A stretch of 63,149 nucleotides of DNA, the filler included, from Atractiella rhizophila (lineage: Eukaryota), in assembly GCA_021432655.1 (NCBI GenBank). It is 3 parts of 3 records of this genome, joined end to end, with 100 filler letters (N's around TTAATTAATTAA, not from the genome) between each part and the next. Parts side by side here need not be neighbours in the genome. Positions count along the whole stretch, not along the records: positions 22,881 to 45,504 come from MU271812.1; 2 more parts are not named here. One strand, written 5' to 3'. The translations under genes and the position numbers were made by a program. Within the stretch, counting starts at the first letter, position 1, and every line of letters starts with the position of its first letter. Below, piece by piece: positions 38,667 through 45,604 of the stretch. The notes beneath the pieces are model-generated. The model was not told where the DNA came from and made no database searches. It was given only the letters and a program-made list of their open reading frames with translations.

Positions 38667-40514
38667 GAGCCTGTTTGGCAACTCCCAAATTCGAAATCCT
38701 GGCTGGGGTGAATTGGACGTGAATTGGACCCTAATCCGGGGGGTGTTCAATTCGAGAATATCCGACGTCCATGTCGGCAATGCCAAGGGTTAAAGCTTGG
38801 CATAGAACAGGGAGTCAGGCATTTCAGTGGTTTTAGTTGCATTTTCGGTGTCCAATTAAAACTACATCCCAAAAATAGAATGCTCTGAAAGAGCACAGAA
38901 GAAAACCAAGGCGGCGAAAAGAATGAGTTGCCAACCTGCTGCTGCAGAACAATTATAAGGATGGTACAGAAGTAAAGAGGGAATACTGACATGCACTTAT
39001 CCAATATGGTCCTAATTTCGTCCCAATCACAAGAATCAACCTCATCCATTTGGAACGGAACGCCTAGCCGAAGAAGTCGTAAAGAAGGGGTCTTCTGCTT
39101 CTGAAAACATTGCTCCTCATCCGGGTACCCCGCAAGCTGTGTGAGCGCCGTATGCTTGCCGTTGCTGAACCGGAGTAAGATACGTCGCCAACACTGTCGA
39201 TCCCGCATGAGAAGGAATGAGAACGACTTTCCTCTCCTTCCTCGCTCAAATATTCGCTGCTTGGAGTAAACAGATGCGAGCTCGCAAAACCTTAGCCGCA
39301 AGTTCATTCTTCTTGTTGTCTGACAGATACAGCAACTCACTCATCTTGAGCTCCGTTTGCTCAGTAACTTCTCCACCTTCTCAATTTCCCCCTCACACTC
39401 CTATCGAGACCAAACGTCGAGGAATTGTGGGAGAAAAGACACCCAGTGACAGATTGTGCTCAGGGGAGTGAGACGGATGGGTGTGGGCATGCAGTTCTGG
39501 ACTGCACCATCGGCTGCCACACACAGAAATTACTCAGCAATCGCTCATAAAGGGGAAGAACAATGAAGGTTCTACAACAAAGGTGAATTAGGAGAAGGGA
39601 GGCTCACGTACTGGGTAAGGTGCAACCGATGGCACACCACAGACACCCCCCGTTGCTTCAACAATCCCGGTCATCGCATTTTTTGATGCGGAACTGACCT
39701 GTGATACACGTTATGCTCTTTGGCTCCCTCTGTAAATACCATAGCTACAAATTGCCCGCCCAACTGATCATGCTTTTACATGTTACAACACTTTTGATAG
39801 CACAGGTGGATTGAGATAGTCAACGTAAGAAGAATGGCATGACGTGGTCGTGTTAGCGGAGATGGGGAACGGAAGGCTGATAGCTGTCGTTTGTATCAAC
39901 TGCTGAGCGTAGGGGAGTGTGCAGTAGGGGCAGAGGGGCAGGAGACGAGACGAGATGGAGGATGGCAACTGTTTTGAATTTTAGGCAGTTAACGGCATCT
40001 TTTGATGATTTTGGACTAGTTTTCAATTGCAGGCGGAGAAGACGGCGGAGCCCAAGGGTCAACTCTTCGGTCAGAACACCCATGGCCTGGAATTAGACGG
40101 ATGAACACCCCCCGCCTAATCAGGCAATTCAGCGTACCGTTTGGCGGCCATAAAATTGCAATTCTCAATCTGTGAATTGCAATTCACCCCAGCCAAGATT
40201 TCAAAAATCGAAATCGAGCTCCAGAGCTGTATTTCGATCCTAAATTTCCTGAATTCGTTGCCGGGAGATGAAACGGACACCTCTCGGTCCTGTCAATGAC
40301 CGGGAATGTATTGAAACACCAAAAAAATGCGGATGAGGACTCAGTTGCGGCATGCTCACGGCCAAGCGAATGCAAGCAAATTTTCCAAATCAGAATTGCG
40401 TTTGGCAACAGCTTGAATTCAAATTCTCAATTCAGGAAGCTGCTTGAATTGGATTCCCAATTCAGGCAATTCACAAAATTCGAATTCAGGCTGAATTGGC
40501 AGCCAAACGGGCTC
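38667..40514. mobile_element. Non-autonomous PIF/Harbinger-type DNA transposon (1848 bp)
   Basis: TIRs GAGCCTGTTTGGC (38667-38679) and GCCAAACGGGCTC (40502-40514), 12/13 match. TAA on both sides (38664-38666, 40515-40517). Subterminal inverted repeats present; no transposase recognised inside. Confidence 0.7.
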
Positions 40515-40705
40515 TAAATAGGAAAGCGGGCAAGTACCGAAAGGAAAATGTTACATGTGTTCCCCTACCGTTAGTACTTCTGAGCTTTTAGGCAAGCACA
40601 CTTCTTTGTATAAATAGGAAAGCGGGCAAGTACCGAAAGGAAAATGTTACATGTGTTCCCCTACCGTTAGTACTTCTGAGCTTTTAGGCAAGCACACTTC
40701 TTTGT
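40515..40705. repeat. 96-bp tandem duplication
   Basis: TAAATAGGAAAGCGGG...CACTTCTTTGT starts at 40515 and again at 40611. Confidence 0.95.
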
Positions 40706-40897
40706 CTATCGACATCCACTCTTCGACATCTACGCCTCTGTCAACACGTCTGCACGTCTTTGCGAGGAAGAAGACTGCACAATTATCCACCGCCACCTTG
40801 CCATAACCCTTCACAGTAATAACAATCTCAGGCATTGTCCTGTCTCCCTTGATTATGGTTGGGGTGATTGTGAATGATGGATGCTCTCACCTTGCCC

Positions 40898-42295
40898 TTG
40901 ATAGAGTGAGAGTACATTTTGCCTTGAAAACTGTGTCTGGCGACGGTTGGTCGGGATCGGTTGAAGGATGCAAGTAAGCACCACTGCGAGGGACCTGTAA
41001 GGATATAGTCGGGTAACCTCCAACCATTTGGACTATGCCAGAACAATGGTCATATGGCTTAGGGTGATCAGGTGCCAGAGAAAATCAGACTCGATGCCCG
41101 ACTCAAGACCCACAACCCCTATGCTGTAATATTCCCCCTAATTATTACAGTAAAAGTACTTCAAGGAGCAGAAGCAATCACATTAATGTTATCGGGTAGA
41201 GTTCAAGTTATGATGATTCAGCTCCCATTCTCCAGCTGCCTCGTTCATGGGAGTAGTGTTAAAGGACTAGATCATTGCATCGGAATGGCAAAGTGGCTGC
41301 AATGCGGTCAGATGTAAAGAATGCGGCGCAATGCGAAAAAGAGGCGAGGTGATGACGATGTTGTGTCATAGTATTAATCGTGATGATAGGTAATATCTCT
41401 AACCCCCTTCCCGTCCTCCTTAGGCACCTTGGATTTATATAACCTCTTTATCCTTTACCTCAGCTCACCTCCATCCCTTAGCATCTAGTCCATCCCACAT
41501 TGACGAAGACAACTGGTGGAAGAGAGAATCATGGACATTGACGAGAATTGGTCTGTAAGTTCCATCCCATGGTGTATTGAGCATGAAACCATATTGATAG
41601 AGTGAGAGTACATTTTGCCTTGAAAACTGTGTCTGGCGACGGTTGGTCGGGATCGGTTGAAGGATGCAAGTAAGCACCACTGCGAGGGACCTGTAAGGAT
41701 ATAGTCGGGTAACCTCCAACCATTTGGACTATGCCAGAACAATGGTCATATGGCTTATGGTGATCAGGTGCCAGAGAAAATCAGACTCGATGCCCGACTC
41801 AAGACCCACAACCCCTATGCTGTAAATATTCCCCCTAATTATTACAGTAAAAGTACTTCAAGGAGCAGAAGCAATCACATTAATGTTATCGGGTAGAGTT
41901 CAAGTTATGATGATTCAGCTCCCATTCTCCAGCTGCCTCGTTCATGGGAGTAGTGTTAAAGGACTAGATAGGGATCATTGCATCGGAAGGGCAAAGTGGC
42001 TGCAATGCGGTCAGACGTAAAGAATGCGGTGCAATGCGAAAAAGAGGCGAGGTGATGACGATGTTGTGTCATAGTATTAATCGTGATGATAGGTAATATC
42101 TCTAACCCCCTTTCCGTCCTCCTTAGGCACCTTGGATTTATATAACCTCTTTATCCTTTACCTCAGCTCACCTCCATCCCTTAGCATCTAGTCCATCCCA
42201 CATTGACGAAGACAACTGGTGGAAGAGAGAATCATGGACATTGACGAGAATTGGTCCGTAAGTTCCATCCCATGGTGTATTGAGCATGAAACCAT
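40898..42295. repeat. ~696-bp tandem duplication (two near-identical copies)
   Basis: TTGATAGAGTGAGAGTAC...GCATGAAACCAT at 40898-41593 and 41594-42295, with a few SNPs and small insertions. Confidence 0.95.
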
Positions 42296-42314
42296 CTAAC
42301 TGAAGCTATAACAG

Positions 42315-44372
42315 GTTACCTTCCGCTGGGCGCTCACCCCGTCCCTTCTCTCCACCTTCTCTCCACCCCTTCCATCCTCCCCTTCCGCCAGCTCCACCGC
42401 GAGCATCTCTACATCCACTCCCAAGTCCAGCTCAGCACAGTTACTGATACAAGGTGGGAGACTCAAGTCTCGCCTGTTCTTCAATCGCTTTCGGGTAAAT
42501 CTTTTCGCATTGACCTGTCAGTTTGATGAAGCTGCATGGTACAGGTGAGGATAATACAGGAGGACGAGCGTATCCGCTGGCTTCTATACAACGACTCCGA
42601 CGCAAGCGCCAAGAACACCTCCCTCTTGCCCTCGCCCTCACCCTCACCAACCGGCAACATTCATGTTTGCATGTCTGTATGTCAACGCCCCTGCCGTCTC
42701 CAAAAGCGTCTAACTTAGTATACCCCGATGCGGACAGTTATACCTGGGCCTAAACCCTCTACTCCAGCCAACGGGCATGGATCTGGAACCGGAGCCGTAC
42801 CATCGACATGAATTCCAAGCCGCGGGAGATAGGAAGGGAAGGTTGGGTGAATTTTGGTGGACACGGAAGGCTTGGGAGGCGCGCAGAGAGGTGTTGGGGG
42901 CAGAGGTATGTCGGCTTTCTCTTGTCTTCTTCTTAAGGACCAGAGACCGCTTCTATTCCACTCGCTGTTCGTTCTCTTCCTGTGATACTTTCATAGTTGC
43001 AGCCTCTTCTCACTCACGAAAGTCTGGATATGCGCTGAGAACGAGAGTCATCTTTATATCAGAAGTAACTCCAAGTAACTTAAAGGCGAGGGTCCCTGAT
43101 AGGAGCGGTTTTCCTGGGCATTGGACGTTGTTCCATGCTGCACGCTTTGTACAGAATGCTGACATCACCAATGCCTTCCAAATAAATAGGGCTGCACGCT
43201 CGTTGTCGCCGTTCAATCTTTCCCGCTTCCCACATCTCCATCTCTCACTGAGGTAGTTGAGCATCAGCGTGCTAGACTGGAGGCAGAAGATTTGTCAGAA
43301 GAAAGGCAGCAAGTTCTGGACACTCTATTCGACGATCCTACCACCGCAGATGTCGTTTTCGTGTTCAACAAAGGGACGAATGAGCAGAAGCGGCTATTTG
43401 CGCATACTTCTGTCCTTTCCATCGCGAACACCAGGTTCGGCACCAGTACGTCTTCTCAGTTCTTCCTTCAATTATCTAATCCTAATTTACTCTTGTGAGG
43501 GTAGTGCTCTCTAAAACTGATCAGCCACGAGAGAAGAGACGAGCATCCAAGGACCTCATTTCTAGGCCTGACATCAGTACTTTCCGACATGTTTCGCATT
43601 TGGGCCTCGATCAACTGGATGGAGACAGTTGGCGAAAAGGGAGTGACGGAGTGGGACGCATACTGGACGGCGTGAGGAGTCTCGCTTCTCCACCACTCAT
43701 GACTTCAGGTATGGTTTCTCCTGTGCCAACACCGATCACCAAGCCCGGTCATCCAACGGTATGTCCATTCCTTCCTCCTCGTTACAGTACGAGAGATTGC
43801 TGAGGTTGCCTGGTGCACTCGGGAAGGGCAAGGAGAGGGACAGTAATCATCATACATCTCCGATTTCATTACGGACGTCGAAACAGTACGACGAGCGTTC
43901 CATCGAGAGGACATCCTACTGTTCTTTCTGGTCGCTTGTACGCTACCTCTACGTTCGACAAGTTTCTCTTTCTCCTGAAGACGCGAAAGAGGTATACTGT
44001 CTCGCTGTGGGTGTGTTATTACTTCTGACTCGTCTTCTTCCGCTCGAGTTAACCAAACCCATTGGTAGAATACGATGTTCCGGGACTGAAAGATGCCGCA
44101 AAAGCTGCCGTCATCAATGCTCTGACCACGACAACCGTGGTAGAAGAACTCATGGGTTGGGCATCCGGTGGGAAGGGGGAGAGGGCAGAAATCAGACGGG
44201 AAATGATAGAATATCTCAAGATCCATTGGGTGAGCAGCTGCTTTTCTCCCCTTAAGCAGTCTGGGTTCGGAACGTTGATGTGCCGTTTCGGAGGCAGGAG
44301 GAGGTAAAGCTTGCAAATCAAGGAGCGGGAGGGACGTGGTTCGAAATCTGTGAGGTATTGGCTGGGCAATGA
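42315..44372 (+). CDS. BTB/POZ-domain protein with internal CRIB motif and possible N-terminal MATH-like domain; first exon not found
   Basis: LFDDPTTADVVFVF...KRLFAHTSVLS and SYCSFWSLVRYLY...AKEVYCLA|VEYDVPGLKDAA (BTB), with ISRPDISTFRHVSHLG at 43558-43605; stop TGA 44370-44372. Upstream exons VTFRWAL...LKSRLFFNRFR. The join near 42900-43260 is not resolved. Confidence 0.7.
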
Positions 44373-44511
44373 ACTCTGCGCTATATGGACTATGAATTTT
44401 TTTGAAAAGAAATCAACGGACCCCACTCGTACTTTGTGAATGTGTGCACATCCTTGTCTATATTTGTCTGTGTCTATTTGTCTATCCATAATGAACGTGC
44501 ACAGGCCATTC

Positions 44512-45504
44512 TCAGTTTGGCAAACAGAAGTCAGTCAACTCCAAGTACCACTTTGCCGCGTCCACAATCTCCTCCAGCCACTCCTTGACCATCTCTAGTG
44601 CCCATACATTCGCGTCAAACTTCACCCATATCTTTAACACTCCATCGAGTGTATGAGAGCCAAGGTAAAATTCTCCGTGCCTCAATCTCAAATCAGATCG
44701 TACAGTGGACCGATCCAGCGTGATTATCTCGCCCTGCGAAGCGGCTGTCACATGTTGGTCCAGTGGCTGACAGGGGAAAGACCGCGGAACCATTCGCGTA
44801 ATATCCCCCCAGGAGGAACCACCGCTGGTGAAGATAAAAGGAGACGGAGACTTTAGATCCCTGAGGTCCTTTGGTACCTTCCCCCCACTCCATCGCTGAG
44901 CTACGTCTTCCTCTTCCTCTTCCGTCCTTTCCGATAACGAAACGGAGCAGTAAGAAACACACTCCTCCATCCATGCTTTAGTCCCACCCAAGCGGCCATC
45001 CCACCACAACTTCCCAATTTCAGCGGCCAGGGGATGTCCCAAATGCGCTGCCAATTTGGACTGCGCAATTCGACATCTTAGTGCAAAGCGGCCTTTTGAA
45101 AGGATGTCGTCCCATCCTATCTCTCCCCGACTTTCCTCGTCCTGAAGGAGGGGAATCGGTCGAGGAAGCCCAGGAGTCGAGATGACGTAGAAGCTCATGG
45201 CGAGCTTTACCTCTCCCTCGCCTTTCTCCCTGACACTGGCAGGACCCGCGAACCAGCAAGGTTGTAGCAACCTCCAATCCAGTTCTCGTTTAGATATCTG
45301 CCCTGAACGGAATAAGCGGATGAGAATTTTCGCCTGGGCGACAGAGCCAAGAATGCATAGCACTTGGTTCCACCGAGCTGAGAGGAGTTTACACTTTCGA
45401 AGGATTTGAAAGGTCTCGGACGGCGTGAACAAATGACAAGGTGAAGCAAGATATGTTGGAAGAACCAGACGATGGGAAGGATTTGGTAGAGTAGGAAGCG
45501 TTTG
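44512..45504 (-). CDS. Hypothetical protein, possibly CoA-dependent acyltransferase (condensation-like) fold; 5' truncated by linker
   Basis: Long ORF running from the linker; ends LRLRHGEFYLGSHTLDGVLKIWVKFDANVW...WLEEI. Family call is weak. Confidence 0.55.
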   Translation of the reverse strand, partial: QTLPTLPNPSHRLVLPTYLASPCHLFTPSETFQILRKCKLLSARWNQVLCILGSVAQAKILIRLFRSGQISKRELDWRLLQPCWFAGPASVREKGEGEVKLAMSFYVISTPGLPRPIPLLQDEESRGEIGWDDILSKGRFALRCRIAQSKLAAHLGHPLAAEIGKLWWDGRLGGTKAWMEECVSYCSVSLSERTEEEEEDVAQRWSGGKVPKDLRDLKSPSPFIFTSGGSSWGDITRMVPRSFPCQPLDQHVTAASQGEIITLDRSTVRSDLRLRHGEFYLGSHTLDGVLKIWVKFDANVWALEMVKEWLEEIVDAAKWYLELTDFCLPN

Positions 45505-45604
45505 NNNNNNNNNNNNNNNNNNNNNNNNNNNNNNNNNNNNNNNNNNNNTTAATTAATTAANNNNNNNNNNNNNNNNNNNNNNNNNNNNNNNNNNNNNNNN
45601 NNNN
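45505..45604. other. Artificial contig linker N44-TTAATTAATTAA-N44
   Basis: Same 100-nt structure as 22781-22880. Confidence 0.97.

Follow-up and report, generated by a model that had tools for sequence, protein, structure and literature searches.

A gene on the plus strand of the Atractiella rhizophila assembly GCA_021432655.1 (positions 42234 to 44372 of the analysed stretch of 63,149 nucleotides, hereafter the window) is transcribed and spliced into a message for a BTB protein of 477 amino acids, in which an insert within the BTB domain carries a near-consensus CRIB (Cdc42/Rac-binding) motif. Judged by sequence, this motif is specifically WASP-like, a feature missed by the first-pass annotation. 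The architecture is unusual, combines two known parts, and occurs so far in one genome of a root-dwelling fungus. The interpretation that we favour, with slightly less than even confidence, is that of a lineage-restricted BTB scaffold or decoy which would be recruited by GTP-bound Cdc42 or Rac and would bind Cul3 weakly or not at all.

Gene structure and transcript evidence

Out of 23 public runs listed, the contigs of four were aligned to positions 42200 to 44500. The runs are labelled 'RNA?' or '?', and these four were taken as RNA because their contigs show spliced joints. Eight introns are removed in the aligned contigs, all eight with GT..AG borders, which leaves an open frame of 477 codons across 9 exons. 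The first-pass annotation had placed the feature at 43270..44372, which is too short, as the gene begins at 42234; the start codon at this position is inferred from an in-frame stop upstream.

Exon 1 (42234..42257, aa 1-8) is joined to the next exon in all four runs, with a one-letter variant in two of them. Exons 2 (42315..42494, aa 9-68), 3 (42545..42676, aa 69-112) and 4 (42738..42905, aa 113-168), supported by contigs and frame, encode a region in the position of a MATH domain, which begins in exon 2 along with a Ser/Pro/Thr-rich stretch. This region ends in exon 5 (43190..43445, aa 169-253), followed there by a linker helix and the first half of the BTB domain. The intron at 43446..43504 lies at the end of BTB helix alpha3; described earlier as an in-frame intron, it is 59 nt long, of phase 1 and not itself in frame, the frame being kept by splicing. 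Exon 6 (43505..43758, aa 254-338; contigs and frame) contains the end of alpha3, a decayed Cul3 clamp, a basic patch, the CRIB motif and a Ser/Pro/Thr-rich spacer. The insert ends in exon 7 (43827..44010, aa 339-399), where the second half of the BTB domain starts at about aa 365, and exon 8 (44069..44229, aa 400-453) encodes the BTB end and 3-box/BACK-like helices; exons 5, 7 and 8 are supported by contigs and by profile matches. Exon 9 (44298..44372, aa 454-477 and the stop codon) is joined in all four runs.

The splicing check proposed with the first-pass annotation, carried out here on the public transcript-type contigs, agrees with its reading of the locus. The introns flanking the CRIB exon, 43446-43504 and 43759-43826, are each removed in three of the four runs, and two single contigs from two runs, X21 (1159 nt) and X22 (1212 nt), each span the first BTB half, the CRIB exon and the second BTB half. 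The CRIB exon is part of the BTB transcript and of its open frame, and the spliced contigs rule out that it is intronic or out of frame.

Several features were observed around the gene. A tandem duplication of about 697 bp (40898-41569 and 41594-42272, 98-100% identical) copies the upstream region and exon 1; a second genomic copy of the gene, on contig C71, matches one unit only, and the duplication may reflect either haplotype variation or faulty assembly. Farther upstream are a 96-bp tandem pair (40515-40706) and a short dispersed repeat (40400-40518), to which 14 of 17 genome matches to 40400-42330 are confined, at 78-100% identity. Downstream and convergent, a long open frame on the minus strand (44512-45552) runs into a scaffold gap; it is open in the second copy too and has no Pfam match at E 0.1.

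The copy on C71 is probably the other haplotype, because WASP, PAK, Rac and Cul3 also occur twice in the genome. It differs in 15 codons, 9 by replacement and 6 silently, which suggests loose constraint on the gene. The 22 codons of the CRIB core show no change (about 0.7 expected, not significant), and the clamp stretch has two amino acid changes (aa 258 and 260), both to Pro. The two WASP copies (L004 and L003; G000:C597, C378) differ in that one shifts frame in the proline-rich region, which probably stems from an error of sequencing or assembly where the sequence is of low complexity.

The BTB domain and its family

The earlier BTB assignment is borne out by a profile of the MATH-BTB family, for which 16 relatives of paralogue L021 were available and 15 were used (P0005, partial and with an actin domain, was left out; P0001 likewise lies outside the profile, and P0006 was also dropped from the alignment used for folding). 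The spliced protein scores 34.6 bits with this profile (E 2.2e-10), against 0.1 bits for the highest of 500 shuffles. The match falls into three collinear blocks, aa 210-255, 343-388 and 390-458, and hhalign against the family gives 95.7% locally and 97.5% globally. The local figure pertains to aa 388-458, which align to the C-terminal 3-box/BACK-like helices of the family and are the best-kept part of the protein. Pfam BTB has no match on single exons, and the gene is not among the 17 matches of a genome-wide BTB search. Feature matches of exon 5 in the ESM Atlas are mostly BTB clusters, all under 0.9, and are taken as a lead only.

From alpha3 to the second BTB half, all 15 relatives carry an insert of 127-264 aa, compared with 111 aa here. 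The split BTB domain is therefore a family trait, and the notion that the split is unusual in itself was rejected. A model of relative P0016 (pLDDT 57.8, pTM 0.40), not of the present protein, shows an N-terminal beta-strand domain, then a BTB domain that a disordered segment (277-396) interrupts, then C-terminal helices; structurally it comes closest to SPOP (E 1.8e-9). Exon 5 modelled from its single sequence reached a pLDDT of 45, and this model was not used. The upstream exons had been described as MATH-like, for which we found no statistical support (in hmmsearch, rank 73 of 1001 sequences; in pairwise alignment, z 0.56); the N-terminal region has the size and position of a MATH domain, with scattered collinear motifs in a global alignment.

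Of 11 paralogous loci examined in the genome, five (L007, L024, L027, L030, L033) have a phase-1 donor where alpha3 ends, like the present gene, which on this feature falls into a divergent subfamily of its own genome; the introns of paralogues and of WASP are predicted from sequence and not seen in RNA. One BTB paralogue of the genome shares 99% identity with a protein assigned to Atractiella rhizophila, so that the window stems from this fungus or a very close relative. The best-scoring BTB paralogue among the loci examined, L007 (G000:C106:82256-85453), shares this donor site, has a long acidic insert and shows neither an F-x-E clamp nor the CRIB pattern. Another observation concerns P0002, the public model of paralogue L021, which around aa 285-315 seemingly retains an in-frame intron inside its S-G-F-x-E clamp.

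The CRIB motif and its distribution

The CRIB motif, ISRPDISTFRHVSHLG, lies at exactly 43558-43605 (aa 272-287), and REKRR at 43528-43542, as the first-pass annotation had it. The CRIB consensus I-S-x-P-x(2-4)-F-x-H-x-x-H-V-G tolerates one or two variations, according to the accessible part of a review (PMC8847673). The present motif agrees at 7 of 8 core residues, with Leu for Val and a spacer of 4, so that its description as near-consensus stands. In the six frames of the window the pattern matches once; it is absent from 300 shuffles and is expected by chance 1.2e-4 times per window or about 0.1 times per genome. A chance match was rejected on the shuffles and the expectation per window.

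The HMMER check suggested earlier for PBD, BTB and MATH was positive for BTB, with the family profile; the MATH signal was not significant (see above), and that for PBD fell short of the cut-off. A 45-aa piece scored 13.5 bits against Pfam PBD (PF00786; E 0.089), under the gathering cut-off of 21.3, the whole 84-aa exon gave no match, and the gene is absent among the 9 matches of a genome-wide PBD search. The CRIB pattern is found in none of the 16 MATH-BTB relatives and is absent from 18 other BTB-like loci of the genome (windows of roughly 3 kb). With the CRIB exon, a PDB sequence search returned 0 matches, and the ESM Atlas gave no usable match for the CRIB piece.

Orthologues were sought with single exons of 50-105 aa, a scope that a distant orthologue could escape and within which the product of this very gene was not recovered. 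Word-based searches covering longer proteins yielded none among 93 candidates for the CRIB exon and 71 for exon 5. HMMER of exon 5 against 1.84 billion representatives gave a single match, P0001, rejected as an orthologue because it is a bacterial cadherin-like repeat artefact, and of 597 and 593 pattern matches in two metagenome scans none was confirmed.

One further CRIB gene of the genome was noted (L016:838-2509, G000:C18; L015, G000:C824). It has no kinase match in the two frames scanned, and its short CRIB (PBD 20.2 bits, E 7.6e-4) is followed by a Pro/Ser-rich frame, a Gic- or RIC-like outline.

Likeness to WASP

In searches of the genome, the matches to the CRIB exon are confined to its two copies and to both copies of WASP (E 4.5e-5); reciprocally, the binding domain of WASP has no match besides itself other than the present gene (E 1.1e-5). 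A core of 22 residues (43546..43611, aa 268-289), which includes the CRIB motif, is identical to the WASP of the genome at 16 positions, non-consensus ones among them. Over 24 ungapped residues, 16 are identical to WASP and 5-6 to each of three other CRIB loci of the genome. The 12 residues upstream of the core have no similarity to WASP, and the 24 residues downstream are marginally similar (score -4, shuffle p 0.036).

For seven of these 16 identical residues the codon differs from that in WASP, twice by a switch between serine codon families, hence protein identity has outlasted DNA identity; identical codons number 9 of 16 against 5.9 expected (P 0.076). The pattern of codons and residues fits either an old capture held by selection or strong convergence. 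Most likely, the CRIB derives from an old capture from the WASP gene that selection at the protein level would have maintained. Both CRIB exons begin at a phase-1 intron splitting a Met codon, which might suggest a simple exon swap from WASP. This explanation is not needed, because the intron position is common to the five BTB paralogue loci named above. Nor is the gene itself a WASP or PAK: true WASP is a separate gene, and exon-level pieces (exons 1 and 9 left out) gave no Pfam match to WH1, proline-rich or VCA regions.

Predicted GTPase binding

The genome contains Cdc42 and Rac genes. Residues were mapped to human WASP (PDB 1CEE) through the alignment with the genome's own WASP, and compared with published mutagenesis (PMC6166713). 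According to the available portion of that work, loss of any one of five WASP residues cuts Cdc42 affinity by a factor above 70. Each of the five counterparts is identical here (I272, P275, F280, H282, H285), in agreement with the earlier comparison to WASP/PAK effectors. The equivalents of Lys235 and Ser242 are kept, and a basic triad, K264-R265-R266 (43534..43542), is in register with K230-K232 of human WASP.

Other positions have changed. Ile233, a Cdc42-specificity residue, is Ala in the present protein, and Trp252 is Leu; in the same portion of the mutagenesis study, the loss is 53-fold for Ile233, 19-fold for Trp252 to Ala, and 64-fold for deletion of the C-terminal part of the binding domain (PMC6166713), which is barely recognisable here. 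From the kept and the changed residues together, GTPase binding is predicted to be real, while weaker and less Cdc42-selective than that of WASP. The Cryptococcus homologue of WASP, Wsp1, contains a GBD and acts together with Cdc42, as described in the part of the source available (PMC7324655).

The same changes bear on an unlikely alternative, by which the motif is a passenger, either a piece captured from WASP or one in decay, that sits in a permissive disordered loop and binds no GTPase to a relevant extent. The altered Ile233 and Trp252 equivalents, the diverged second half of the binding domain and the PBD score under the Pfam cut-off all agree with it, as do the excess of replacement over silent differences between the two copies, the inserts of 127-264 aa accepted by this loop in relatives, and the occurrence of the motif in one genome only among the single-exon searches. 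However, a neutral fragment is not expected to retain exactly the binding residues together with a basic triad in register, and 16 of 22 residues were kept although seven codons differ and the adjacent 12 upstream residues are dissimilar.

The motif may be functional with another partner, mimicking the WASP core to engage a WASP-directed partner such as the C-terminal region of WASP or a PAK, or preferring the GDP form of the GTPase. The likeness to WASP at non-consensus positions would suit such mimicry, and there is a precedent in Dictyostelium, where CRIB coronins prefer GDP-Rac and one binds PAKa via its CRIB, according to the accessible sections of one source (PMC8305917). The part kept is nevertheless the GTPase-contacting core, while the helical second half, used by WASP for autoinhibition, has diverged, and we consider this very unlikely.

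Searches for GTPases gave some side observations. Two near-identical Rho1-like genes lie about 1.7 kb apart (L042 and L043; G000:C199:22022-24004). Rac/Cdc42-like sequences, 52-72% identical over the Cdc42 piece, occur on GTDB contigs of several bacterial genomes (L071-L088) and recur in Maricaulis (one complete chromosome, L082) and Zetaproteobacteria; they may include true Rho-like GTPases of bacteria alongside contamination. Two viral contigs in IMG/VR (L066:935-1510, L067:935-1510), one of them labelled a giant-virus genome, carry an intronless Rac-like GTPase of 191 aa with a CAAX-type end.

The Cul3 clamp

In KLHL11 (Phe130-Ser131-Glu132) and SPOP (Met233) the alpha3-beta4 loop clamps Cul3 via a hydrophobic residue and a Glu, according to the accessible part of the source (PMC3597819). 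Directly after alpha3, F-x-E is present in 14 of 15 relatives, in the form S-G-F-x-E; in the one exception, P0002, the gene model apparently kept an intron. At this position (43510..43533, aa 256-263) the present protein reads SKTDQPRE, in which no clamp is found. Among paralogues, L007 also has no clamp motif, and L027, L030 and L033 keep a similar one.

The first-pass annotation had suggested a Cul3 adaptor recruited by, or targeting, GTP-bound Cdc42/Rac. The SPOP-like lineage, the 3-box-like helices and the Cul3 gene of the genome speak for this, and the decayed clamp against it. We do not class the protein as a Cul3 adaptor because the clamp is lost, though the helices are kept and Cul3 is encoded. 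Cul3 binding is doubtful on this sequence comparison, and may persist because those helices are the best-kept part.

A working substrate adaptor, which would be recruited by GTP-Cdc42/Rac or would ubiquitylate the active GTPase or its neighbours, thus appears rather unlikely. Beyond the features just listed, a Glu is still present as E263, two positions past its place in the relatives, and animal Cul3 ligases regulate Rho-family signalling, as far as the available parts of two papers go (PMC8201781, PMC10371987). However, the hydrophobic clamp residue is gone, and a Pro would replace Phe if E263 were used; the clamp stretch varies between the two genomic copies while nearly all relatives and several paralogues keep the motif or a similar one; and the substrate-binding MATH domain is not statistically recognisable. 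In this reading, because the CRIB motif begins about ten residues past the clamp position, a bound GTPase could act as a switch for the docking of Cul3, in either direction. The bolder form of this idea, a ligase adaptor directly reading the nucleotide state of Cdc42/Rac through a WASP-derived CRIB in the Cul3-clamp loop, seems improbable to us. If it were true, active GTPase would gate ligase assembly or confine ubiquitylation to polarity sites, and motif capture would have rewired polarity signalling in a lineage-specific manner.

Proposed model and significance

Based on this dataset, we hypothesize that the protein, which is expressed and evolves fast, belongs to the basidiomycete MATH-BTB-3-box (SPOP-like) lineage, and that its disordered alpha3-beta4 insert, present in relatives too, has gained a WASP-type core consisting of basic triad and CRIB. 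The Cul3 clamp just before this core has decayed. Exposed on a flexible loop, the CRIB would bind GTP-Cdc42, and perhaps Rac, more weakly than WASP does. A BTB dimer (dimerisation being assumed from the family) would present two CRIBs and may thereby gain avidity. The protein is predicted to gather at membrane patches of active GTPase such as hyphal tips, septa or endocytic sites, where it may serve as a scaffold whose N-terminal domain carries partners, or may compete with WASP and PAK and so buffer their signalling; any role in a Cul3 ligase would be small or nil.

If the binding is real, the effector encoded by this gene would be of a new architecture, and it would clearly illustrate the passage of a short motif from WASP to a scaffold unrelated to it. 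It would also suggest that, in basidiomycete BTB proteins, long inserts can acquire binding motifs that escape Pfam scans. For now the reach of these statements is limited to one genome and a predicted function.

Relation to known systems

Fungal CRIB proteins comprise PAK kinases, WASP/Wsp1 and Gic-like scaffolds. The first-pass annotation knew of none among BTB proteins, and our literature search, which covered few subscription papers, likewise found no CRIB inside a BTB protein; the introduction of the CRIB review, the portion consulted, names no BTB-containing CRIB protein (PMC8847673).

With the GTPase-binding domain of WASP/Wsp1 (PF00786; human WASP, PDB 1CEE; Cryptococcus Wsp1) the protein shares the basic triad, Lys235 and the five hot spots, and with the genome's own WASP the four-residue spacer between Pro and Phe. 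It differs from WASP in the replacement of Val250 by Leu besides the Ile233 and Trp252 changes, in a barely similar hairpin and helix after the core, in having neither a WH2 motif nor long proline-rich tracts in the spliced protein, and in the location of the motif in a BTB loop.

With the SPOP-type, basidiomycete MATH-BTB family (P0002-P0017; rusts, Microbotryomycetes, Agaricomycetes) it shares the collinear BTB halves, the 3-box/BACK-like helices, a long low-complexity alpha3-beta4 insert and an N-terminal region of MATH size and place. In contrast to these relatives, its insert is shorter, carries the CRIB and is net basic (19 K/R vs 14 D/E; acidic in relatives), F-x-E is missing, MATH similarity is not significant, and Pfam BTB misses its single exons.

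The Cul3-BTB regulators KCTD10 (RhoB), KLHL4 (PAK1/CDC42) and RhoBTB/RacA likewise tie BTB domains to Rho-family GTPases, according to the available parts of the sources (PMC5839774, PMC10371987, PMC8305917). As described there, none of them relies on a CRIB of its own within the BTB protein: KLHL4 reaches CDC42 via GIT1-betaPIX and PAK1 (PMC10371987), and in RhoBTB the GTPase itself is fused to BTB domains (PMC8305917). The protein also resembles the non-kinase CRIB proteins yeast Gic1/2, SPEC, CEP/Borg, PAR-6 and plant RIC, which are non-catalytic CRIB scaffolds as well.
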